From an uncultured virus (IMG/VR IMGVR_UViG_3300032069_000008) (lineage: Duplodnaviria; Heunggongvirae; Uroviricota; Caudoviricetes), in the IMG/VR virus record IMGVR_UViG_3300032069_000008: DNA of 64,000 nucleotides. One strand, 5' to 3'. A program made the translations under genes and the position numbers. Under the pieces are notes generated by a model. The model was not told where the DNA came from, searched no databases, and saw only the letters and a list, made by a program, of their open reading frames with translations. Positions 7,989-46,466 of the stretch are shown here, piece after piece. Every line of letters begins with the position of its first letter. The first letter of the stretch is position 1.

Positions 7989-7994
7989 ATAAAA

Positions 7995-8069
7995 CGCATG
8001 GGAACGGATTTGAACCATTATCTTTCCGATTAACAGTCGGAAGCATTAGCCAGGTTATGCTACCCATGC
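7995..8069 (-). tRNA. tRNA-Asn(GTT)
   Basis: Acceptor GCATGGG/CCCATGC, loop CTGTTAA, T-loop TTCAAAT, G73. Confidence 0.92.
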
Positions 8070-8070
8070 A

Positions 8071-8142
8071 TGTAGATGTAGGGATTTGAACCCTAACATA
8101 TGGCTCCACAGACCATAATGCTACCATTACATCACATCTACC
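8071..8142 (-). tRNA. tRNA-His(GTG), possible encoded G-1
   Basis: Acceptor GTAGATG/CATCTAC, loop CTGTGGA. Confidence 0.9.
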
Positions 8143-8145
8143 ATA

Positions 8146-8217
8146 TGCCCCTGAAGGGAGTCGAACCCTCATCTTTGGATTAGAAGTCCATGATACTATC
8201 CACTATACTACAAGGGC
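8146..8217 (-). tRNA. tRNA-Arg(TCT)
   Basis: Acceptor GCCCTTG/CAGGGGC, loop CTTCTAA. Confidence 0.88.
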
Positions 8218-8218
8218 A

Positions 8219-8292
8219 TGGGTCTGTCAAGATTTGAACTTGAGTATCCGAGTTCCAGGCTCGGGAGGATAACCAGACTACCTCACAGACCC
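8219..8292 (-). tRNA. tRNA-Pro(TGG)
   Basis: Acceptor GGGTCTG/CAGACCC, arm CCGAG-CCTGGAA-CTCGG (C33). Confidence 0.88.
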
Positions 8293-8295
8293 AAG

Positions 8296-8366
8296 TGGAA
8301 GTAATAGGAATTGGACCCATATCTCTGGTTTTGGAGACCAGCATGTTACCACTACACCATACCTCC
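8296..8366 (-). tRNA. tRNA-Trp(CCA), intronless
   Basis: Arm CTGGT-CTCCAAA-ACCAG; atypical T-loop TCCAATT. Confidence 0.82.
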
Positions 8367-8367
8367 A

Positions 8368-8442
8368 CGAGCGTGGTGAGATTTGAACTCACGACCTCTT
8401 AGTTCGAAGCCAAGCCATCTGTCCAAGCTGATATACACGCCC
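8368..8442 (-). tRNA. tRNA-Arg(TCG)
   Basis: Arm CTTGG-CTTCGAA-CTAAG. Confidence 0.9.
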
Positions 8443-8443
8443 A

Positions 8444-8516
8444 CGGACCCGATGGGACTTGAACCCACTTCTTCTCCTTCGCACGGAGAAAGACTATCCA
8501 GCTATCCTACGAGTCC
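8444..8516 (-). tRNA. tRNA-Arg(GCG)
   Basis: Arm TCTCC-GTGCGAA-GGAGA. Confidence 0.87.
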
Positions 8517-8520
8517 AAAA

Positions 8521-8592
8521 TCTGGATGAACGGACTCGAACCGATATTTATTCGGTCTACAGCCGAACGCATAACCTTTCTGCCACATCCAG
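8521..8592 (-). tRNA. tRNA-Tyr(GTA), archaeal type
   Basis: C1:G72, A73, short variable loop, loop CTGTAGA. Confidence 0.9.
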
Positions 8593-8594
8593 AG

Positions 8595-8692
8595 TGCGAG
8601 TGGGAGGATTTGAACCTCCGTTCTCAGCTTTATCAGAGCTGTGCGGTGCCAGATTATAAGTCTGGTGCGAAACCAAGCTACGCCACACTCGC
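8595..8692 (-). tRNA. tRNA-Ile with two tandem anticodon arms (TAT and GAT)
   Basis: 98 nt: GCGAGTG TG GCG-TAGCTTGGTTT-CGC A CCAGA-CTTATAA-TCTGG CACCGCA CAGCT-CTGATAA-AGCTG AGAAC GGAGG-TTCAAAT-CCTCC CACTCGC A. Confidence 0.85.
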
Positions 8693-8694
8693 AA

Positions 8695-8769
8695 CGAACC
8701 TGGGGAGATTTGAACTCCCGACAACCTGCTTAAAAGGCAGGCGTGTTGACCTAGCTACACTACAGGTTC
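8695..8769 (-). tRNA. tRNA-Lys(TTT)
   Basis: Arm CCTGC-CTTTTAA-GCAGG. Confidence 0.92.
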
Positions 8770-8772
8770 ATA

Positions 8773-8846
8773 CGGACCTAAAGGGATTCGAACCCTTGAC
8801 TTCTGGATTAAGAGTCCAGCACGCTACCTAGCTACGTTATAGGTCC
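8773..8846 (-). tRNA. tRNA-Lys(CTT)
   Basis: Arm CTGGA-CTCTTAA-TCCAG. Confidence 0.92.
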
Positions 8847-8848
8847 AG

Positions 8849-8922
8849 AGACTCTCCCCTGATTTGAACAGGGAATCACCTGATTTGCAGTCAAGGGCGT
8901 TGCCAGATTCCGCCAGAGAGTC
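8849..8922 (-). tRNA. tRNA-Cys(GCA)
   Basis: Loop CTGCAAA, U73 discriminator. Confidence 0.92.
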
Positions 8923-8923
8923 A

Positions 8924-8997
8924 TAGGCGTGGAATGATTTGAACATTCAACCGATGCGTTGTAAACGCATTGCACCACCAGATTGTGCTACACGCCT
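8924..8997 (-). tRNA. tRNA-Val(TAC)
   Basis: Arm ATGCG-TTTACAA-CGCAT. Confidence 0.9.
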
Positions 8998-8998
8998 A

Positions 8999-9072
8999 TG
9001 GACTTGGTAGGATTTGAACCTACAACGTCTGCCTCTTCAGGACAGCGAACTCCCAGATTGTTCTACAAGTCC
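8999..9072 (-). tRNA. tRNA-Phe(GAA)
   Basis: Arm CTGTC-CTGAAGA-GGCAG. Confidence 0.92.
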
Positions 9073-9075
9073 TTA

Positions 9076-9147
9076 TGTTCCCATCGGGACTCGAACCCAA
9101 GTTTCCAGGCCGAGAACCTAGCGTGATTGCCTCTACACCATGGGAAC
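9076..9147 (-). tRNA. tRNA-Glu(CTC)
   Basis: Acceptor GTTCCCA/TGGGAAC, loop TTCTCGG. Confidence 0.88.
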
Positions 9148-9164
9148 GAAGTAGAAGTTTCCCT

Positions 9165-9488
9165 CTACTCTTTTATTTGTTCTGCAAGACTTGTTGGCAG
9201 ATTCAACTTTTTCAGCAATCTTCCTGTTACAACTATTCTTGCTTGTGAATAATTGAAAGGTTCATCCGTCCAGCATTTTGCTTCATCTTCAGCAAATGAT
9301 TTTCCATCACTTGCCTCAGCTTTCGTATATCCGACCCAGATTGGTAATCCTGTGTAAGTGCTTCTAGGTCCTACATGATTTGGTCTGTGATGATATTCGA
9401 TTACCATCTTATGTCCACTGGTTTCTATCACTCGCTTCTCATCCTTATCTTGAAGGATGGCATCATATATTTTTTGTTTATTTTTCAT
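9165..9488 (-). CDS. 107-aa virus-type hypothetical protein embedded in the tRNA array
   Basis: ATG at 9488 preceded by GGTGA; fills the gap between the two tRNA-Glu genes; AKC..D.FN....R motif. Confidence 0.7.
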   Translation of the reverse strand: MKNKQKIYDAILQDKDEKRVIETSGHKMVIEYHHRPNHVGPRSTYTGLPIWVGYTKAEASDGKSFAEDEAKCWTDEPFNYSQARIVVTGRLLKKLNLPTSLAEQIKE

Positions 9489-9502
9489 GGCTCTTTCACC
9501 AG

Positions 9503-9577
9503 TGTTCCCAATGGGATTTGAACCCATGACTGTGGGTCGAAAGCCCACTATCTTTGTCCGACCTAGACTATGGGAAC
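9503..9577 (-). tRNA. tRNA-Glu(TTC)
   Basis: Arm GTGGG-CTTTCGA-CCCAC. Confidence 0.9.
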
Positions 9578-9580
9578 GGA

Positions 9581-9653
9581 CGGTCTCATCGGGATTTGAA
9601 CCCAAATCGTCTGATAGACAGTCAGATATGATACCTGATTACACCATGAGACC
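9581..9653 (-). tRNA. tRNA-Asp(GTC)
   Basis: Arm TCTGA-CTGTCTA-TCAGA, G73. Confidence 0.9.
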
Positions 9654-9655
9654 TA

Positions 9656-9729
9656 TGGAGTTAGAGGGATTTGAACCCTCAGTCAACGATTTGCAAAACC
9701 GTTATCTTCCCTGGTTAGACCATAACCCC
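9656..9729 (-). tRNA. tRNA-Ala(TGC)
   Basis: G3:U70 in GGGGTTA/TAACTCC; loop TTTGCAA. Confidence 0.88.
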
Positions 9730-9730
9730 A

Positions 9731-9806
9731 TTACGGTGGGAGGATTTGAACCTCCATACTTTAGCTTATGAGGCTAATGGACATCCAAGTTGTCCGTCAC
9801 ACCGTA
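9731..9806 (-). tRNA. tRNA with CAT anticodon (elongator Met or Ile2)
   Basis: Arm TTAGC-CTCATAA-GCTAA; 4-nt acceptor/D linker (2 nt longer than usual). Confidence 0.8.
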
Positions 9807-9877
9807 TAATCCCGCCCGGGTTCGAACCGAGGTTTGCGGGTTCAAAGCCCTGTCATTGACCACTAGACTACGGGATT
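9807..9877 (-). tRNA. tRNA-Gln(TTG)
   Basis: A1:U72 (archaeal Gln identity), loop CTTTGAA. Confidence 0.85.
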
Positions 9878-9883
9878 TTATGA

Positions 9884-9949
9884 TAGTTCCGAACGGATTC
9901 GAACCGTTGTCACCGCCTTCAGGGGGCAGTATCGTTGGAACACGGAATA
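9884..9949 (-). pseudogene. Degenerate tRNA-Gln(CTG)
   Basis: Intact anticodon arm (loop CCCTGAA) and T arm; truncated D arm and only a 5-bp acceptor stem. Confidence 0.65.
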
Positions 9950-9950
9950 T

Positions 9951-10055
9951 GTCCCGACAGGTTTCGCTGTGAGAGGAGCGTACGCCTTCCCACACGCTTT
10001 AGTTGTTCTTTTGATTAAAGAACTTATAACCAGGGTCATCAGCCTTGCTGTCGGA
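9951..10055 (-). ncRNA. Candidate structured RNA within the tRNA array
   Basis: Closing helix TCCGACAG/CTGTCGGG with two internal hairpins. Confidence 0.45.
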
Positions 10056-10126
10056 TGCACCCAACGGGAATCGAACCCGTATATTTGCGTTGGAAGCGCA
10101 ACTCCCTACCATTGGGATATGGATGC
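10056..10126 (-). tRNA. tRNA-Gly(TCC)
   Basis: Arm TTGCG-CTTCCAA-CGCAA. Confidence 0.9.
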
Positions 10127-10184
10127 AGGCAAAGCGTCCCACGTCAAGAATAATCTTCTTTTCTGTTATTCTTCCATTTTTATA

Positions 10185-10255
10185 TGCGGATGCCGGGAGT
10201 TGAACCCAGACTGTCTGATTGGCAACCAGAAGTCATGCCGTTAGACCACAACCGC
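10185..10255 (-). tRNA. tRNA-Gly(GCC)
   Basis: Arm TCTGG-TTGCCAA-TCAGA. Confidence 0.87.
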
Positions 10256-10263
10256 TTAAAAAA

Positions 10264-10337
10264 AGCCACCGACCGGAATCGAACCGATATTTCGTTCCCT
10301 TACAGGGGGAGTGCAAGCCAATTTTTGCTACGGTGGC
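10264..10337 (-). tRNA. tRNA-Thr(TGT)
   Basis: Acceptor GCCACCG/CGGTGGC, U73, loop CCTGTAA. Confidence 0.87.
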
Positions 10338-10527
10338 ACTAAAAAGGGGAACTAATATTCCGTCGGTGTCTCGACACTATCTATATGTCTACCCCAGGCT
10401 ATCCCACTAAAAATCGCATTACACTTCTGAGACATACGTTGTCGAGACATTCTAAATCACTTTATTCCATCTCCAAAGAGTCTACTCATTAGTAAATGGA
10501 AATCATTTAAAAAGAAATAAAAAAGGG

Positions 10528-10570
10528 AGTATATAAAATTATTGACAGACCAAAACTCTTATAAATAAAA
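10528..10570. promoter_or_regulatory. Divergent TATA boxes for the two tRNA transcripts
   Basis: TTTTATATA on the minus strand (about 10530-10538); CAAAACT-CTTATAAATA on the plus strand (about 10552-10567). Confidence 0.55.
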
Positions 10571-10600
10571 ACAATATTTGCTTTTTAATGAAAAACAAAA

Positions 10601-10665
10601 TCTTATCCAGTTTGCTAGAGTCGTTACGGCTCAGTCCCTTACGGGACTAATTACATTGGATAAGA
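10601..10665 (+). ncRNA. Candidate structured RNA (multi-way junction) ahead of tRNA-Leu
   Basis: TCTTATCCA/TGGATAAGA stem enclosing GAGTCG-TTA-CGGCTC and AGTCCC-TTAC-GGGACT. Confidence 0.45.
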
Positions 10666-10673
10666 CTATTTTT

Positions 10674-10820
10674 GCCGACGTAGCCAAGTCTGACGAAGGC
10701 GCTAGACAGAATTTTTGGGCGAAGCTTAAAAACTTTGGGCGATGCTCAAACAATCGCCAACTTGGAGAGACCTAGTCCCGTAGGGGTTAAAACCCGTAGG
10801 TTCAAATCCTGCCGTCGGCA
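10674..10820 (+). tRNA. Intron-containing tRNA-Leu with alternative anticodon exons (TAA or CAA)
   Basis: Acceptor GCCGACG/CGTCGGC plus A73; archaeal Leu variable arm TCCCGTAGGGGTT. Exons 10674-10705, then 10724-10730 or 10744-10750, then 10770-10820, with BHB motifs at 30/31 and 37/38. Confidence 0.8.
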
Positions 10821-10824
10821 CTAG

Positions 10825-10910
10825 GCAGGAATGGCCGAGTGGTTAAAGGCGATAGGTTGCTAACCTATTGGTTGAAATATACCACGTAAGTTCAAATCTT
10901 ACTTCCTGCG
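10825..10910 (+). tRNA. tRNA-Ser(GCT)
   Basis: Arm ATAGG-TTGCTAA-CCTAT, long variable arm, G73. Confidence 0.92.
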
Positions 10911-10913
10911 TAG

Positions 10914-10995
10914 GGTGAGATGACAGAATCAGGGATTGTACCCCGCTTGAGACGGGTGCTTACTGGTGACAGTATTGAAGGTTCAAATCTCACCG
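10914..10995 (+). pseudogene. Degenerate tRNA-Ser(TGA)
   Basis: Acceptor GGTGAGA/TCTCACC, loop CTTGAGA and long variable arm present; 3' strand of the T stem missing. Confidence 0.7.
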
Positions 10996-11023
10996 CTTCA
11001 AAATTGTATGCCGTTGTTGACAT

Positions 11024-11041
11024 AGTTTTTAAGTAGATAGA
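11024..11041 (+). promoter_or_regulatory. Archaeal promoter, second copy of AGTTTTTAAGTAGATAGA
   Basis: Identical to 5990-6007. Confidence 0.65.
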
Positions 11042-11063
11042 AGTTGATTTCTTTTTGGTCACT

Positions 11064-11753
11064 ATGCTTGAAAATGCACAAGTTTGTAAAAAGATAGGAG
11101 GCACCATAAACGGTGATTTCTGTTACATCAACGATAGCTATCTGAAAGAAGCAGATTTGGAATGCCCGCAAGTTCATGGAACGCGTGTACCTGTTTTAGC
11201 AGAGAGCAATCTCTTATTATGTGAAATACCTCTTGCTGAATTGTCACTAATGTCGGAATGTACGTTCAAGATGCTGGAAAGACGGGAGTTGGAAAGGATT
11301 AATCCACCAACCAAACCAATCGGTTTTGTTGAAACTAAAGATGGTGTTCCAATGATAAGTATGTCAACGACAGAACACAGACCCCTAACCCCAGAAACGC
11401 TTACAGATGCAATAAACCGTACGTTGCTTCAAAAAAATAAATTCAGAGCTGATGTTGGAGATAACTGGTTCCCATGTGGCTTTGTGAACCTGCATGTAGA
11501 TGGTCGTGACCCTTTGGTTACGTTCTTGAAAAAATACGGTATAAAAGATGAAAGTTCAGACTACATAAAATTTGATAAAATTGAAATCAAAAGGGATGAA
11601 TACGCCGGTGGATACAGAATATACCTTAGATATGGTGGGCGAGATGCAGTTGAACAGCAATCAATGAATTTTAAGAATCTACTATATAGCGAATTGCAAA
11701 AACAACTTGCGTTGCTTGGTATAAGAACAACTGTAGACAGCATGATTGATTAG
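11064..11753 (+). CDS. Virus-type hypothetical protein
   Basis: CGF...G...LKK.G...QSM..K...L...GI...S.ID pattern resembling phage hypothetical proteins. Confidence 0.65.
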   Translation: MLENAQVCKKIGGTINGDFCYINDSYLKEADLECPQVHGTRVPVLAESNLLLCEIPLAELSLMSECTFKMLERRELERINPPTKPIGFVETKDGVPMISMSTTEHRPLTPETLTDAINRTLLQKNKFRADVGDNWFPCGFVNLHVDGRDPLVTFLKKYGIKDESSDYIKFDKIEIKRDEYAGGYRIYLRYGGRDAVEQQSMNFKNLLYSELQKQLALLGIRTTVDSMID

Positions 11754-24123: not shown

Positions 24124-24840
24124 ATGAGCTTTTGTGAAGAGCAAAAGAGAAACTTCGCACGGCTCAAATGCAACGTGTGGATAGTTCCAGAACCATATAA
24201 GACACCAGCAACAGATTATCCTCTCGAAAAGGTCGGTTCGGCAGAGTTGAAACGGTCATATGACCATCAAAACGTCTACGTCATGGAAGGGGTAAACAAC
24301 AGTGATTTTTGTTGCGTTGAAAACAAGATACCAATCACCTCTCTTAAAATTAATAAAACGACCTGGATGGTCGATATACCTTCTCATTGGGAAGGAATGA
24401 AAAGACTTGCAGAAAAAAGCAGAGGAAACGTTCTCGTCGGCGGTCTTGGTCTTGGATTGGTTTTACATGCCTTACGAAAGAATCCCAAAGTCAAAAAGAT
24501 AGATGTTTATGAACGTAATAAAGACGTAATAAAACTGATGAAGGACAAGATACCAAAAGACATCACAATCCATAATGAAAATGTATTTTCTTTTGCAGAT
24601 GAACGAATGTGGAAAAAAATAAAAGGGGAGGAAGTCACTGATTGCCCAGATACAATAATACTGGATACGTGGGTCGGTAAACCAGATAAAAAAATGTTTT
24701 ACGAAATGGTTGCAGCACATGGGAGTTTTTTGTTTGCTTGTCCTAATTCAAAAGTCTATATTTGGGGAACTAGAGACCCAGAATTGAACCCAGCTATTGA
24801 GAAAGAACCATGTGAAGTATTAAAGGAGATGAGAGTTTGA
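24124..24840 (+). CDS. Class I SAM-dependent methyltransferase-like protein
   Basis: VLVGGLGLG motif I, VYE acidic motif, IILD.W. Confidence 0.75.
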   Translation: MSFCEEQKRNFARLKCNVWIVPEPYKTPATDYPLEKVGSAELKRSYDHQNVYVMEGVNNSDFCCVENKIPITSLKINKTTWMVDIPSHWEGMKRLAEKSRGNVLVGGLGLGLVLHALRKNPKVKKIDVYERNKDVIKLMKDKIPKDITIHNENVFSFADERMWKKIKGEEVTDCPDTIILDTWVGKPDKKMFYEMVAAHGSFLFACPNSKVYIWGTRDPELNPAIEKEPCEVLKEMRV

Positions 24841-26219
24841 AAAAAGAAACTAAAAAAATATTAGCAATAACGTTAGTCCTTTTGCTGCTTCTCATAAGTT
24901 CGTTCTATGTATTATTTTTAAAGCCAGAACCTATGCAGACTACAGTAGATACACAAGGTGCTTGGTGGATAACACAAGCTTGGTTAGGATGGCGAAACCA
25001 GGATAATGTATATCAAAAATACGCCACGTTTTATGATGGTGAATCAATACAAGGCTGTGATTATACGCTTACATATAAACAGAGTGAAGGTTATGGGAAT
25101 CCTACGAAATGGAAGGTGACTGTAGAGATACAAGATAAAAACCATAATCGGGTTAAAGGAACTACTGTAACAGGCGGTGCATTGGCTGTTGGACAGACGG
25201 TTACTGCTGTGTGCGATTTCAGTCCTATAGAGTTATCATCAACTAATCGCCTTCATGGTGACGTCTGGATAGAAATATACAATACTAATGTGGGTTGGGA
25301 GGGTGGTCAATGTGTATCGAATCTTCCAATTAATGTTCAACCAAATTTACCTAGTTTTACATTAGATTATTATCAGGTGTCTGCAACAACTGCTAAGGCG
25401 GGTGACACTCTTACTGTTTCATATCAGTATACAAATACTGGCAGGGCATCCGGAACATTATACGTTGCCTTGTGGGCTGATAAATGGAAAAGAGGAGAAA
25501 ACTATGGGGACATGGAACTTTATACTAAAAAATCAGAGCAAATAGCGGTCGGCGGTACCCTTTCTGATACTATGTCGGTTCAAATTTTAGATAATTATGC
25601 GTCAGATGATAATATTATAAGATTGGGTCTGAACAATGAAATAAAGCAAATAACATACACACCGCCGATATACTCACTGACCATCGTGACTGTACCAGCA
25701 CAATGCCTTGTAACTACCTCTGGTAAATCAGTCAATTCAGGCACGGCTGGTGCGGTATTCAGCCTGGGAAAGGGAACATATAGTGTTACTGTCACAAAGG
25801 ATAAATATTCCCCGAAAACAGAGACAGTTGCACTTGACCAATCAAAAACAGTAATAGTAACACTATCACAAATAATATACGATTTAGAGATTAATACAAC
25901 GCCACTCAGCACGGTTGAAGTTAAAAATGTGGATACGAAATACGCAGATGAAAATGGAACTGTGACCTTCAAATTAATACCAAACACATATGCTATTGTA
26001 ATCTCAAAATCAGGATATACTGCAAAGTCACTATCAATAACTGTTGATAAAAACATGATTTATACACAAGCATTGGAAAAAAGCACAGTACCAACGCCAC
26101 CACCATCTACACCACCACCTACAACACCACCCACCAAAAAGACACCGGGATTTGAAACCGCGATATCGCTAATCGCCTTAGCACTTGTTGTTATTGCATG
26201 GAGGAAACGCCGTGAGTGA
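24837..26219 (+). CDS. Cell-surface protein with PEGA-like repeats and PGF-CTERM
   Basis: N-terminal TM, Pro/Thr linker, TPGFE plus TM plus RKRR. Confidence 0.85.
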   Translation: MKKETKKILAITLVLLLLLISSFYVLFLKPEPMQTTVDTQGAWWITQAWLGWRNQDNVYQKYATFYDGESIQGCDYTLTYKQSEGYGNPTKWKVTVEIQDKNHNRVKGTTVTGGALAVGQTVTAVCDFSPIELSSTNRLHGDVWIEIYNTNVGWEGGQCVSNLPINVQPNLPSFTLDYYQVSATTAKAGDTLTVSYQYTNTGRASGTLYVALWADKWKRGENYGDMELYTKKSEQIAVGGTLSDTMSVQILDNYASDDNIIRLGLNNEIKQITYTPPIYSLTIVTVPAQCLVTTSGKSVNSGTAGAVFSLGKGTYSVTVTKDKYSPKTETVALDQSKTVIVTLSQIIYDLEINTTPLSTVEVKNVDTKYADENGTVTFKLIPNTYAIVISKSGYTAKSLSITVDKNMIYTQALEKSTVPTPPPSTPPPTTPPTKKTPGFETAISLIALALVVIAWRKRRE

Positions 26220-30964: not shown

Positions 30965-31969
30965 GTGATGACGATGAAACAAACAGTCTGCAATTACTGT
31001 AAAAAAAAAATTAAGCGTTTTCCTTGTAAAATACGTAAAATTAATTTTTGTAACAAAAAATGTTTATCTAGTTGGTATAAATTAAAAAGAAAGTCAATTA
31101 CTTGTAACAATTGCGGTAAAAAGATTGATATTATTCACGCAAAAATAAAAAATCACAACTATTGTTCAAATGCTTGTTATCATTTATCACGAAGAAATAA
31201 TCGAATAATCAATAAAATTCCAACAAAAGGAGAATTAATCGAACAATATGTAAAACAAAATAGAACATTAAAAGAAATAGGAAAATGCTACGGTTTGGCA
31301 AGGGAAACTACATATTTTTATATCAAAAAATATAATATTAGTTACGAAAAAAAATGGTCTCTTACAAAAATAAATAAAAGACAAACATTTTTCTTAGGGT
31401 ATGTAGTCGGTGCTATTTTTGGTGATGGATGGTTTTATAAAAAGGCATATAGAACATATTTTTGTTCTACAGAGTTATCTTCAATATCAGTATTTATGAG
31501 TATGCTGTCAGAGATATATCCAGGTTGTTTCAGGATACGAACTCAAGAAAGACCAAATGTAAAAATATTATATACCATAGAAATTCCATGCAAAGCATTA
31601 TATGAGTTTCTTTCACCATATAAAGAAAAATCACGATTTTTTATACCAGATTTTTTAAATACAAAGGAAAGCAAAGCAGGATTTTTATCGGGCTTTTTTG
31701 ATGCTGAAGGCTGCATACAAATTTATAACAATAGATTAGCATCATTATATATCAGTTCTAAATATTATGAAAATCTTATTCCAATTCAAAAAATGTTAAC
31801 CGAATTTGGAATAGAATCTAAATTGAATAGAGTAAAAACACGCATGGAAAGCAGAATATATTTAGGACAAAACTACGAAAATCTAAAAAAAATTAAGAAA
31901 AATATAAACTTTCATTCTTTCAAAAAAATGAAAACACTGGAGGATGCAATATGCTTAAAACAACAATAG
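30965..31969 (+). CDS. Free-standing LAGLIDADG homing endonuclease with N-terminal Zn-finger repeats and HTH
   Basis: YVVGAIFGDG and FLSGFFDAEG motifs; CxxC..FC...C repeats. Confidence 0.88.
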   Translation: MMTMKQTVCNYCKKKIKRFPCKIRKINFCNKKCLSSWYKLKRKSITCNNCGKKIDIIHAKIKNHNYCSNACYHLSRRNNRIINKIPTKGELIEQYVKQNRTLKEIGKCYGLARETTYFYIKKYNISYEKKWSLTKINKRQTFFLGYVVGAIFGDGWFYKKAYRTYFCSTELSSISVFMSMLSEIYPGCFRIRTQERPNVKILYTIEIPCKALYEFLSPYKEKSRFFIPDFLNTKESKAGFLSGFFDAEGCIQIYNNRLASLYISSKYYENLIPIQKMLTEFGIESKLNRVKTRMESRIYLGQNYENLKKIKKNINFHSFKKMKTLEDAICLKQQ

Positions 31970-33403: not shown

Positions 33404-33664
33404 ATGGTAACTGACCCAATAACTGACCTATTTAGTGGAACTGGCACAGAACAGGAAAAAAAGAAAGCTGAAGCATATTGGTCTGCAAGCCTGAATGTAA
33501 AATGTCCATATTGCGGGCACATTGTCGATATCCTTGATACAGATGAATGGAGCAATGACTGGGCATATAAATTCGGCAGATTGGAAACCAGAGCAAAGAT
33601 AGATGCAGAAGTGCAGTGCCCAAAATGCAAATTAATCTTTGATGTGGAGACTGTGATATGGTAG
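33404..33664 (+). CDS. Zn-ribbon protein
   Basis: CPYC...CPKC. Confidence 0.6.
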   Translation: MVTDPITDLFSGTGTEQEKKKAEAYWSASLNVKCPYCGHIVDILDTDEWSNDWAYKFGRLETRAKIDAEVQCPKCKLIFDVETVIW

Positions 33665-34986
33665 AGACAATATGCGATAACTGTGGAAAAAAAATTGAAC
33701 GAAATAAATACGAAATAGAAACATGTGAGCGTCATTTTTGCAACAGAAAATGCTATGGGAAATGGCGTTCCCAAAATAGAATTTGTGCCAACCATCCTAA
33801 TTGGATAGATGTACCAAAAAACGAAATAATTGATTTGTATAAATCAGGTTGCACAATTACTAAGATTAGCAAAATGCATCATATATCACAAGGAACCATA
33901 TACAGTAGATTTAAAAAATGGGACATACTCTTAATTAATAAAAATGCTGAGATAAAATGCGACAATTGTGGAGAAAAAACCAAAAGAAGAAATTGTTTAA
34001 TAAAAGCATGGAAGCACCATTTTTGTAACAAGAAATGCTATGATGAATGGAGGATGTACCCAATAAAATTAGAACCAACTTATTCCCTTGGCTATTTAAT
34101 TGGTGTTATTTTTGGAGACGGACATATAAATTTATCTCAAAATAGGATAATTATAACAACTGCGGATATAGACTGGATTGGAACGCTTATAACGATAATT
34201 AATGAAATTTGTCCCCAAATATCAACAGTCGGCATCCAATCATATGAATATTGGGGCAAAGCCGTCCAAGTGGGTATTTACTCTAAAAAATTATGTAAAG
34301 TTCTCAAACCCTTTAAACTAGAACCACACAGATATAATATCCCGCCCTTTCTAAATACGCCAGAATCATTAGCAGGTTTAGTAGCAGGCTTGATAGATAC
34401 AGATGGATGCATACAAATCCATAGACAAAATATTAATATTGAACTGACTTCAAAATATGTTGAAAATCTAATTCCAATTGAAAAAATATTAAAAAATATT
34501 TTTGAGATAAACTCAAAAATTTACTCTCCCCCGTCTCGTGAATCTTCGGTTTTAAGGATTGCCGGCTATGCAAATTTGTTTAGATTTGAACAGAAGATAG
34601 GGCTAATAATGACAAGGAGACAAAATCTACTGCAACAAGCAATTACCGAAGCAGAAAAAAAATATAAACGAAGAGAGTACAGTAAGCAAAGAATAGAAGA
34701 AATGGTACATCTTTATAAAAATAAAAATCTTTCTTTGAGACAAATAGCAAATAAATTAGATGTAAGTAAAGACTATGTTTGTATAGTTGCAAGAAGAAAC
34801 AACCTTTCAAGAAGAACAATACATACGCCAGAGCAATATAATGACGTAATTAATTTACGAAAAATGGGGCATACTATCGAAGAGATATCATTTCTCACAA
34901 GTATTAGTATTCATGCTATCCGAGAATGGATTTATAGAAACAGAAAACCGCTATCAGTGCACATGCTGGAGGCTGAAAATGGTTGA
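33658..34986 (+). CDS. Free-standing LAGLIDADG homing endonuclease with Zn fingers and HTH domains
   Basis: YLIGVIFGDG and LVAGLIDTDG motifs; similar to 30965-31969. Confidence 0.9.
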   Translation: MVETICDNCGKKIERNKYEIETCERHFCNRKCYGKWRSQNRICANHPNWIDVPKNEIIDLYKSGCTITKISKMHHISQGTIYSRFKKWDILLINKNAEIKCDNCGEKTKRRNCLIKAWKHHFCNKKCYDEWRMYPIKLEPTYSLGYLIGVIFGDGHINLSQNRIIITTADIDWIGTLITIINEICPQISTVGIQSYEYWGKAVQVGIYSKKLCKVLKPFKLEPHRYNIPPFLNTPESLAGLVAGLIDTDGCIQIHRQNINIELTSKYVENLIPIEKILKNIFEINSKIYSPPSRESSVLRIAGYANLFRFEQKIGLIMTRRQNLLQQAITEAEKKYKRREYSKQRIEEMVHLYKNKNLSLRQIANKLDVSKDYVCIVARRNNLSRRTIHTPEQYNDVINLRKMGHTIEEISFLTSISIHAIREWIYRNRKPLSVHMLEAENG

Positions 34987-45163: not shown

Positions 45164-45245
45164 ATGGATAATGGATGGATAGCAATATTTATATAATCCA
45201 CTGCATATATATTTTGTGTTGAAAACAAATAGAGTAAAAATAAAT

Positions 45246-46466
45246 ATGCAAATAACAACAAAACGTGTTGAACGGATATGGTTGAAACCATCCGATGAAC
45301 TGAATCGGATGTGCCACATTGCAAAAAACCTATACAATGAAGCAACATATCTGATACGCCAGGAATTATTCAACACGGGCCGGCGGATTAGATACAATGA
45401 ACTAGCCAAAGTGTTGAAGGATTCAGAGAACTATAAGATTCTTCCTGCAAAGACGGGCCAACAAATTCTTAAATATGTTGATTGGAACTGGAAAAGTTTT
45501 TTCAATGCCATGAAACAGTACAAAAAAATTCCCAGTGCTTTCTTTGGGCGTCCTGGCATTCCGAAATACAAACATAAAGATGGAGTATTCATGCTGATTT
45601 TCACTAATCAGCAAGTGAGCATCAAAAACAACGTACTAATATTCCCTAAAAAGATGGATGAAGTTCTGCCAAAGGTCAGAGTGAGACCTATTATAGAAAA
45701 ACTGAGGGAAGTACGTCTTATTCCACGTGCAGTTGGCTATATTCTTGAGATTGTTTACGATAAAATAATTAATGCACCGAAGCGAGACAAACGTATTGTG
45801 GCTGGTATCGATTTGGGTGTTCGCAACCTTGCAACTATCGTAGATAACACAGGTGGTAAGCCTATTGTTATCAAAGGCGGGACTGTGAAGTCAATCATCC
45901 AATTCTACCAGAAAGAAAGGGCACGACTGCAAAGCATCTATGATTTGCAGAAGCAAGACAAACAAGGCATGAAGATGAAACGATTGTCGGACAAGTATAA
46001 AAAGAAGATGCACGATTATCTGCACAAGGTTAGCAACGCCATTATAAAGCATCTGGACAGACGTGGTATCGGTCTCTTGGTCATCGGGTACAATGATGAC
46101 TGGCAACACAAAGCAACTCTTGGTAGACGAAATAATCAAACATTCTCATCAATACCGTATAGACAGCTCATCAACATGCTTCAATATAAAGCAGAGGAAC
46201 AGGGAATTAATACTATGATGCCAGACGAGAGCCATACTTCTGTGTGTTCATTTTTCGATAACGAAACGATAGAACATCATGATGAGTATGTTGGAAAACG
46301 GAAAGGCGGATTGTTCAGAACAGCAAAAGGGCATGTTGTGAATGCAGACGTGAACGGTGGATTTGACATCATGAAGAAAGCAGTCCCAAATGCCTTCCAG
46401 AAATGGATGGCGGACGGGATAGAGGGTGCCGTGGGTCATCCATTGAGATTGAAGGTCGTGCGATGA
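45246..46466 (+). mobile_element. tnpB: Stand-alone TnpB (IS200/IS605 family, IS1341-like) RNA-guided nuclease
   Basis: AKNLYN helix, RuvC-I GIDLG, ESHTS, RuvC-III NADVNG; no adjacent tnpA. Confidence 0.9.

Follow-up and report, generated by a model that had tools for sequence, protein, structure and literature searches.

A tRNA-Leu gene of a virus-like element with tandem anticodon cassettes: a candidate for cis alternative tRNA splicing

Can a single transfer RNA (tRNA) gene supply two isoacceptors through a choice between alternative pieces of its own anticodon loop? This question is raised by a tRNA-Leu gene at positions 10674-10820 of a 64,000-nucleotide (nt) stretch of DNA from an uncultured virus (IMG/VR record IMGVR_UViG_3300032069_000008; the whole stretch is referred to as the window), for which a first-pass annotation, made from the sequence alone, had proposed a cassette-exon choice between Leu(UAA) and Leu(CAA). 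In the current work, this gene was analysed together with its homologues in related contigs. The reading reached, to which we assign a probability of roughly 0.6, is that both isoacceptors would be yielded through mutually exclusive anticodon cassettes, and it is considered very probable that the gene is functional and spliced at bulge-helix-bulge (BHB) motifs.

A sensitive Rfam scan of positions 9850-11100 returned an end-to-end tRNA match with a Leu-type body at 10674-10820 (35.3 bits, gathering score 29, E 2.2e-05), the anticodon arm of which holds a 66-nt insertion. Exon 1 (...GCGCTAG) ends at 10705 and exon 3 (ACCTAG...) starts at 10770, exactly as first annotated, with an insert of 64 nt (10706-10769) between them. 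The duplication with a 20-nt period that had been reported within this insert was recovered as a direct repeat of 17 nt, TTTGGGCGAAGCTTAAA (10714-10730) and TTTGGGCGATGCTCAAA (10734-10750), the copies being 15/17 (88%) identical, spaced by 20 nt and different at anticodon position 34. The two 7-nt cassettes were likewise located at the proposed positions, every sequence statement of the first-pass annotation having been confirmed on checking, and all pieces of the gene lie contiguously on the + strand within 147 nt:

10674..10705, + strand: exon 1, comprising the acceptor 5' strand, the D arm, position 26 and anticodon-stem positions 27-30 (CTAG), placed by Rfam alignment and sequence
10700..10706, + strand: common splice donor, CGCT (10700-03) and the 3-nt bulge AG↓A (arrow, predicted cut), with a predicted cut after 10705, from BHB geometry
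10706..10723, + strand: intron a, 18 nt, out in the UAA path, with a small inner hairpin, the first GGCG (10718-21) and the bulge AA↓G
10712..10732, + strand: hairpin UUUUGGGC-GAA-GCUUAAAA, which sequesters cassette 1 in the minimum-free-energy and constrained folds
10724..10730, + strand: cassette 1, GCTTAAA, positions 31-37, anticodon UAA, in-silico product tRNA-Leu(taa)
10731..10743, + strand: spacer with the second GGCG (10738-41) and the bulge AT↓G, in intron 2 (UAA path) or intron 1 (CAA path)
10744..10750, + strand: cassette 2, GCTCAAA, positions 31-37, anticodon CAA, in-silico product tRNA-Leu(caa)
10751..10769, + strand: intron c, 19 nt, with the shared acceptor GGAG (10764-67) and the bulge AG↓A, predicted cut after 10769
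10770..10820, + strand: exon 3, comprising A38, the stem strand CCTAG, a long variable arm, the T arm, the acceptor 3' strand and the discriminator A, placed by Rfam alignment

CCA is not encoded at the end of exon 3. As a separate observation, a 14-nt inverted repeat (93% complementary) connects 10636-10649 in the 5' leader (CCCTTACGGGACTA, itself in a hairpin) with 10773-10786 (TAGTCCCGTAGGGG, the beginning of exon 3 and the variable arm); possible explanations are a leader-exon pairing and a relic of the variable arm of another Leu gene.

ARAGORN makes no call at this gene, whether or not a single anticodon-loop intron of 0-300 nt is allowed. Once the introns are removed in silico, a cloverleaf with a 7-nt anticodon loop is restored by either join, and the two 90-nt products are called Leu(taa) and Leu(caa) with a score of 111.1 each, in agreement with the claim that both joins give Leu tRNAs.

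The BHB geometry was measured at every predicted junction in the window gene and in its homologues from three other lineages. At the upstream junction (30/31) of the window gene, CGCT (10700-03) pairs with GGCG at 10718-21 or 10738-41, with 4/4 central pairs each and flanking helices of 4 base pairs (bp; inner) and 2-3 bp (outer; 3 bp for intron a), which is the arrangement of two motifs with a common donor that the first-pass annotation had described. The shared acceptor GGAG-AG↓A (10764-70), which it had called relaxed, indeed retains 3/4 central pairs. After the first splice, the outer helix of the downstream motif is the anticodon stem itself (5-6 bp among the lineages, 6 bp in the window). 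The base facing position 34 in this motif is G in 4/4 lineages and can therefore pair with either U34 or C34.

The proposal that the skipped CAA exon is locked in a hairpin is borne out by the minimum-free-energy fold, in which GGGCGAU (10738-43) pairs with AUCGCC (10753-58) around cassette 2, cassette 1 being enclosed by a hairpin of 10712-10720 with 10724-10732. Pairing of the second GGCG with exon 1 breaks the second hairpin and pairing of the first keeps it, so that the two upstream motifs are mutually exclusive. Moreover, loop bases 32-34 are used by both the upstream and the downstream motif of a given path. This overlap implies that splicing is sequential, and it would protect the 7-nt exon from release.

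The mechanism that may be proposed is as follows. The gene would be an intron-containing archaeal-type tRNA-Leu gene of which positions 31-37, that is one stem base and six loop bases including the anticodon, are supplied from one of two tandem cassettes. In front of each cassette stands GGGCGA(A/T), the GGCG of which would pair with the constant CGCT of exon 1 to form the 4-bp central helix of a BHB. A host splicing endonuclease would cut at the 3-nt bulges AG↓A and A(A/T)↓G, and a host ligase would join exon 1 to the chosen cassette, whereupon the anticodon stem would be restored and the remainder up to exon 3 would become an ordinary 37/38 intron; in this second motif, loop bases 32-35 (CU(U/C)A) would pair with the constant GGAG, the G facing position 34 taking U or C. 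Whether tRNA-Leu(UAA) or tRNA-Leu(CAA) is made would thus depend on the GGCG selected by exon 1. The second GGGCGAT (10737-43) would be locked in its hairpin with ATCGCC in the UAA fold, and in the CAA fold, cassette 1 would be locked in a hairpin serving as the long inner helix of the BHB. We infer in vivo cutting and ligation, the order of the two splices, accumulation of both products and the archaeal host.

Homologues of the Leu gene were assigned by synteny, the gene preceding Ser(GCU) and Ser(UGA). In L001 (= L008) and L017 (= L018), ARAGORN calls a Leu(UAA) gene whose canonical intron measures 38 or 37 nt, and places a separate Leu(UAG) gene after it; the UAA loop is contiguous in both, and a detached CAA cassette, ACTCAAG in L001 and ACTCAAA in L017, is present inside the canonical intron, preceded by TTTTAAGGGTGAT or TTTTAAGGGTTAT with the element GGGTGAT or GGGTTAT. 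L002 (= L019; L020, a contig named separately and different from L002 outside the Leu gene, shares the gene without change) has four cassettes, all detached: GCCTAGA, GCCAAGA, GCTTAAA and GCTCAAA. GGG(C/T)GA(A/T) precedes each of them, and their anticodons UAG, AAG, UAA and CAA are all leucine anticodons. This gene is mis-called by ARAGORN as 'Gly, intron 71 nt', and no other Leu gene, Leu(UAG) included, was found in L002 within 14,018 of the 20,937 contig nt. All 10 cassette anticodons of the four lineages are thus Leu, and the CAA cassette with its upstream element is kept in 4/4; exons of these lineages are merely 61-69% identical, and the conserved intron elements are therefore taken to be under constraint.

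Joining every cassette in silico (two products each for the window, L001 and L017, four for L002) gave products of 83-90 nt, and ARAGORN assigns 10/10 of them to tRNA-Leu, each with its expected anticodon, at scores of 111-122; with the intron option off, it calls no unspliced gene among the four. Each of the four genes accordingly has at least two interchangeable exons, one donor, one acceptor and a valid product from each exon. At the upstream junction, 4/4 central pairs are present for 8/8 cassettes (inner helix 3-8 bp, outer 1-3 bp), with the donor bulge AG↓A and the acceptor bulge A(A/T)↓(G/A) across the four lineages, and the downstream junction (37/38) has 4/4 central pairs in both paths of L001 and L017.

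The first-pass annotation had also suggested that covariation be sought in homologous loci. In a MAFFT alignment of the four genes (A3), eight pairs were followed, namely four of the upstream central helix in the CAA path, three of the downstream helix and the pair 31-39, which exists only when a cassette has been spliced in. All 32 cells (32/32) hold standard pairs and three of the eight pairs are changed on both sides. Two of these compensatory changes fall in the upstream helix (C-G to G-U and G-C to A-U, as in CGCT/GGCG versus GACC/GGTT), and at 31-39 a G-C pair in the window and L002 corresponds to A-U in L001 and L017. When the partners were slid by 1-3 columns, 31-56% of cells were paired with 0 compensatory changes, and the observed covariation values were reached by 14 of 500 shuffles. 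With four sequences, this covariation is suggestive, not conclusive, support for a spliced cassette design. Cassette-exon choice as originally put forward is supported by the CAA cassette in three other lineages, the four-cassette gene of L002, the covariation and the ten Leu products.

Every possible cut pair was also enumerated in each gene for strict BHB motifs, of which there are 5, 7, 5 and 8 per gene, including all eight predicted upstream ones. Shuffled sequences reached at least the observed total in 6/200 cases for the window and in 4/200 for L002. For L001 (31/200) and L017 (20/200) the total is not clearly above that of shuffles, which is the first of several points that weigh against the cassette reading; the total count of BHB-like motifs is no useful statistic.

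The remaining points of this kind concern folding, the downstream motif, the size of the sample and the state of the cluster. RNAfold favours none of the window's four BHBs, the probabilities of their central pairs being close to 0, as is also the case in L002, and forcing them in the window costs 6.8-11.3 kcal/mol; only the CAA-path upstream motif of L001 (0.18) and L017 (0.28-0.53) is appreciably populated. The downstream motif of the window is relaxed in both paths, with an A.G mismatch beside the bulge, and in L002 three of the cassettes give it 3/4 central pairs and the AAG cassette 2/4. Among ten ARAGORN intron calls of related arrays measured as controls, seven are strict BHBs (4/4 central pairs, outer helix of at least 4 bp), unlike this downstream motif in the window and L002; of the others, one has 3/4 central pairs and two are evident mis-calls. 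The lineages found are only four, and the covariation counts are small. Two L002 cassettes (UAG and AAG) carry C33 and one carries A34, which is unusual for archaea; C33 is not disqualifying, because it occurs in 12 of 156 ARAGORN tRNAs of these arrays (e.g., Pro(UGG) of the window and Met, Thr, Asn, Glu, Asp and Gly of its relatives). The insert contains runs of 5-6 T, and oligo-T is able to terminate archaeal transcription. No RNA run is among the public runs listed for the locus. Finally, some decay is suggested in the cluster: following Ser(GCU), as in the relatives, there is a Ser(UGA)-like gene (10914-10995, + strand; Rfam 20.6 bits, below the gathering score) in which the 3' strand of the T stem seems to be absent, the T loop running directly into the acceptor strand, and which is probably damaged.

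These results bear first on the explanation that the gene is spliced and only one cassette reaches the mature tRNA, the other being a structural part of the intron, for instance a folding or docking hairpin; UAA would then be produced through the canonical intron in L001 and L017, and the window would have one fixed choice. Such a gene is compatible with the ordinary Leu(UAA) calls with one canonical, strict BHB intron in L001 and L017, with the two upstream folds of the window, which lie about 2 kcal/mol apart and neither of which is favoured over the minimum-free-energy fold, and with the lack of a listed RNA run. However, a structural hairpin has no need of a loop identical to an anticodon loop, the first cassette base covaries with position 39 (A-U versus G-C), and the BHB with its 3-nt bulges is placed for an in-register swap; moreover, L002 keeps four modules with four Leu anticodons and is without the separate Leu(UAG) gene of its relatives. 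A single-product gene is therefore judged unlikely.

Is the duplication itself real DNA? The first-pass annotation had named an assembly merge of two alleles as what would refute it. In public run X1, which is possibly the source, a 12.9-kb contig includes the stretch with 0 differences. X2 represents a different sample and a different study. At a depth of only about 2, it contributes two contigs of 151 nt, one for 10561-10711 and one for 10709-10859, neither of which shows a difference or a gap; both repeat copies fall within the latter contig, which is of read length. The four-cassette gene is, in addition, identical in L002, L019 and L020, the last of which differs from L002 elsewhere. A merge was accordingly rejected.

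A self-splicing intron was considered along with it. Group I introns of bacterial and plastid tRNA-Leu(UAA) genes are self-splicing and measure a few hundred nt, and they share with the window gene an intervening sequence in the anticodon region. The window insert, in contrast, has 64 nt and BHB geometry, and a search of it against Rfam returned only the tRNA family at E up to 10, with no group I match. Nothing was found in favour of either an allele merge or a group I intron, and both are regarded as very improbable.

A third explanation is that replication slippage duplicated 20 nt and thereby disrupted the anticodon region of a decaying gene, cassettes and motifs being functionless remnants. 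A further small internal repeat, CCCGTAGG, does occur twice within the gene (10777-10784 and 10793-10800), the T arm of the neighbouring Ser(UGA)-like gene is disrupted, and the unspliced Leu gene receives no ARAGORN call. Against decay, two samples share the identical sequence, the products form perfect cloverleaves, and the modular design has been kept, with compensatory changes, across an exon divergence of 31-39%. Furthermore, neither ARAGORN nor Rfam finds another Leu gene in the 64-kb window, nor a separate Leu(UAG), yet leucine accounts for 1121 of the 15071 codons counted in 52 window open reading frames (ORFs). Decay is thus thought improbable. Among these Leu codons, UUA (24.7%) and UUG (21.5%) are both frequent, and under the cassette reading both isoacceptors would therefore be used.

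How does such a gene relate to known systems? Caldivirga maquilingensis has tri-split and Nanoarchaeum equitans split tRNAs that are trans-spliced (Fujishima et al. 2009 and Randau et al. 2005, cited in the available passages of PMC4033280 and PMC6582322). The passages of PMC4033280 describe the Caldivirga tri-split case and an N. equitans 3' half common to two 5' halves, both in trans; in those of PMC6582322, alternative pre-tRNA splicing is held to be very rare, and the only case cited there is the trans-spliced tri-split tRNA-Gly of Caldivirga. As far as these passages describe them, split and tri-split tRNAs resemble the window gene in that constant pieces are combined with alternative anticodon pieces into synonymous isoacceptors at endonuclease-cut BHB joints, and differ from it in being separate genes and transcripts of a cellular chromosome, joined in trans via complementary leaders. 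The window gene, in contrast, is situated on a viral or mobile element, on one strand, within 147 nt and presumably in one transcript, and competing folds would choose between tandem 7-nt cassettes. Assignment to the split class was rejected, as the pieces are contiguous on the + strand at 10674-10820 and not at separate loci.

Multi-intron tRNA genes are known from Thermoproteales and other archaea (Sugahara et al. 2007-2009, cited in the available passages of PMC4033280). The window gene has the tested features of such a gene, and the likeness, to the extent that those passages describe it, lies in a short internal exon flanked by two BHB introns, of which one is non-canonical and interrupts the anticodon stem and the other is at 37/38. 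Their introns are constitutive and yield one tRNA per gene, whereas the internal exon of the window gene is present in two copies (four in L002) with differing anticodons and one donor and acceptor. The gene thus shares its logic and machinery with split tRNAs and differs from them by its single locus, at which anticodon cassettes would be mutually exclusive in cis.

In eukaryotic pre-mRNA, mutually exclusive exons are chosen via competing RNA pairings, for example between the docking and selector sites of Drosophila Dscam. The same logic would apply here, as the constant docking strand CGCT can pair with only one of the repeated selector strands GGCG, so that one cassette would be chosen; the difference is that a protein endonuclease and a ligase would act on a BHB instead of a spliceosome, and that the product is a tRNA. 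The first-pass annotation knew of no described cis example, and no description of cis alternative splicing in a single tRNA gene was found in full-text literature searches, subscription-only papers being outside their scope; likewise, the available passages of PMC4033280, PMC6582322 and preprint 10.64898/2026.10.13.758758 contain none.

With regard to its surroundings, the Leu gene occupies one end of a dense array of at least 25 tRNA genes (7994-11000). ARAGORN finds 24 tRNA genes in the window, the Leu gene not among them, and Rfam 25 at the gathering score. The window has a G+C content of 35-44% and small, closely spaced ORFs. The + strand carries the Leu, Ser and Ser-like genes (10674-11000), and the - strand the remaining array (7994-10337); in L001, L002 and L017, the Leu and Ser genes and the array are on one strand, and the 10674-11000 segment is therefore taken to be inverted in the window.

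Pfam matches among 55 window ORFs include S8 peptidases, DUF5131, LAGLIDADG endonuclease domains and an IS605 OrfB/TnpB-type transposase, as well as a sorting signal of the archaeal PGF-CTERM type; no match to a splicing endonuclease (EndA) or to RtcB was obtained among these 55 ORFs. Four of the matches are placed as follows:

24837-26219: protein with PEGA/CarboxypepD_reg and PGF-CTERM (Pfam)
30965-31969: LAGLIDADG-domain ORF (Pfam)
33658-34986: second LAGLIDADG-domain ORF (Pfam)
45216-46466: IS605 OrfB/TnpB-type transposase (Pfam)

PHROGs added few phage-type matches (a clamp-loader-like ATPase, HNH and a methyltransferase), neither PHROGs nor Pfam gave a match in the window to capsid, portal or terminase, and no match to the window was obtained among GenBank phages. 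The window is called a virus-like element of a probably archaeal, uncultured host, with the label 'virus' applied because its relatives are IMG/VR contigs. The strict BHB introns in the related arrays indicate that the hosts splice by BHB, and therefore point to archaeal hosts; together with the PGF-CTERM protein of the window, they also lend indirect support to a host that would have EndA and RtcB.

The array also encodes a conserved protein of about 107 amino acids (aa; 9165-9488, - strand), for which 10 homologues were present in the protein collection. It has no Pfam or PHROG family, and 30 residues are invariant, including a GLPIWVG motif and a C-W pair. In most array-carrying related loci, its gene sits between the Glu and Phe genes, a constant position which suggests that the protein is tRNA-related. 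An alignment of the homologues (A1) retrieved six viral-contig and 16 metagenome-contig loci, and no relative among the genome contigs searched with it; most of the retrieved loci carry the array in the same gene order according to ARAGORN, with introns in many tRNAs. Searches by sequence pattern were also performed. Exact patterns from the window Leu gene returned nothing in viral, genome or metagenome contigs, and a Phe D-arm pattern nothing in viral contigs. In viral contigs, a first cassette pattern returned only the contig of L001, and a second returned 108 stretches with 112 matches, only two of which, both on the L002 contig, have a T-loop motif downstream. A Gln anticodon-arm pattern returned two known contigs and unrelated arrays with ordinary Leu genes.

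Several other genes of the array and of its relatives were observed to be unusual. A weak tRNA at 9884-9949 (- strand, 27.1 bits) combines a poor acceptor stem with the loop CCCUGAA, which corresponds to a C33-bearing Gln(CUG); the matching place of the array is occupied by a Gln(CUG) gene in L012 and L013. A 98-nt tRNA at 8595-8692 (- strand, Rfam 59.1 bits), missed by ARAGORN, has the Ile(UAU) arm CCAGA-CTTATAA-TCTGG and, in its variable region, a second perfect arm-like hairpin with a GAU loop, CAGCT-CTGATAA-AGCTG, in a gene where a direct repeat CGCAC flanks a 24-nt unit. In L002 (5854-5949), the extra Ile arm is imperfect, and Ile(GAU) has a gene of its own besides; the window lacks such a gene, and ATA represents 49% of the Ile codons of its ORFs. 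No convincing BHB for an arm swap was found in the two-armed window gene, and ARAGORN accepts products of this kind too readily to be discriminating. Long introns of 79-111 nt are present in L002 (4380-4550 and 5221-5373), L013 (1238-1427), L014 (2450-2631) and L011 (2934-3119). The 111-nt inserts of L013 (Lys gene) and L011 (Ser according to ARAGORN) are alike, with shared stretches that include CAGCAAGATG and CCCGATGGAG, which suggests a mobile or functional intron RNA.

Comparison of the four Leu genes permits a tentative account of how the cassettes may have arisen. The contiguous UAA loop with one detached CAA module, as in L001 and L017, looks like the older state. In the window and L002, the 31-39 pair would have changed from A-U to G-C and the contiguous loop would have decayed, to ACTTTTTT in L002 and to ACAGAAT in the window, where this string at the start of intron a resembles a decayed form of the contiguous cassette of L001 and L017. 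The cassettes of the window and L002 may then represent detached modules multiplied through short tandem duplication, and those of L002 apparently replace the separate Leu(UAG) gene. On balance, we lean slightly towards the view that a virus-like lineage of sediment archaea evolved a duplicable unit of selector and cassette (GGG-Y-G-A-W followed by 7 nt), through which 2-4 isoacceptors may be obtained from one Leu body.

For annotation, there is a gap: ARAGORN misses the window gene and calls its relatives single-intron Leu(UAA) or 'tRNA-Gly' with a 71-nt intron, and cassette genes are therefore invisible in current catalogues. If the cassette reading is true, the gene would be the first case of a tRNA alternatively spliced in cis, docking/selector exon choice would have a non-spliceosomal analogue, and protein-only archaeal splicing would be seen to support mutually exclusive exons with RNA pairing as the selector. 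The ratio of the isoacceptors would be set by fold competition and could be tuned during infection. Isoacceptors would be born through duplication of a 15-20-nt module inside a gene and not through gene duplication, as the four-cassette relative suggests, and mobile elements would in this way compress their decoding capacity through cassettes.

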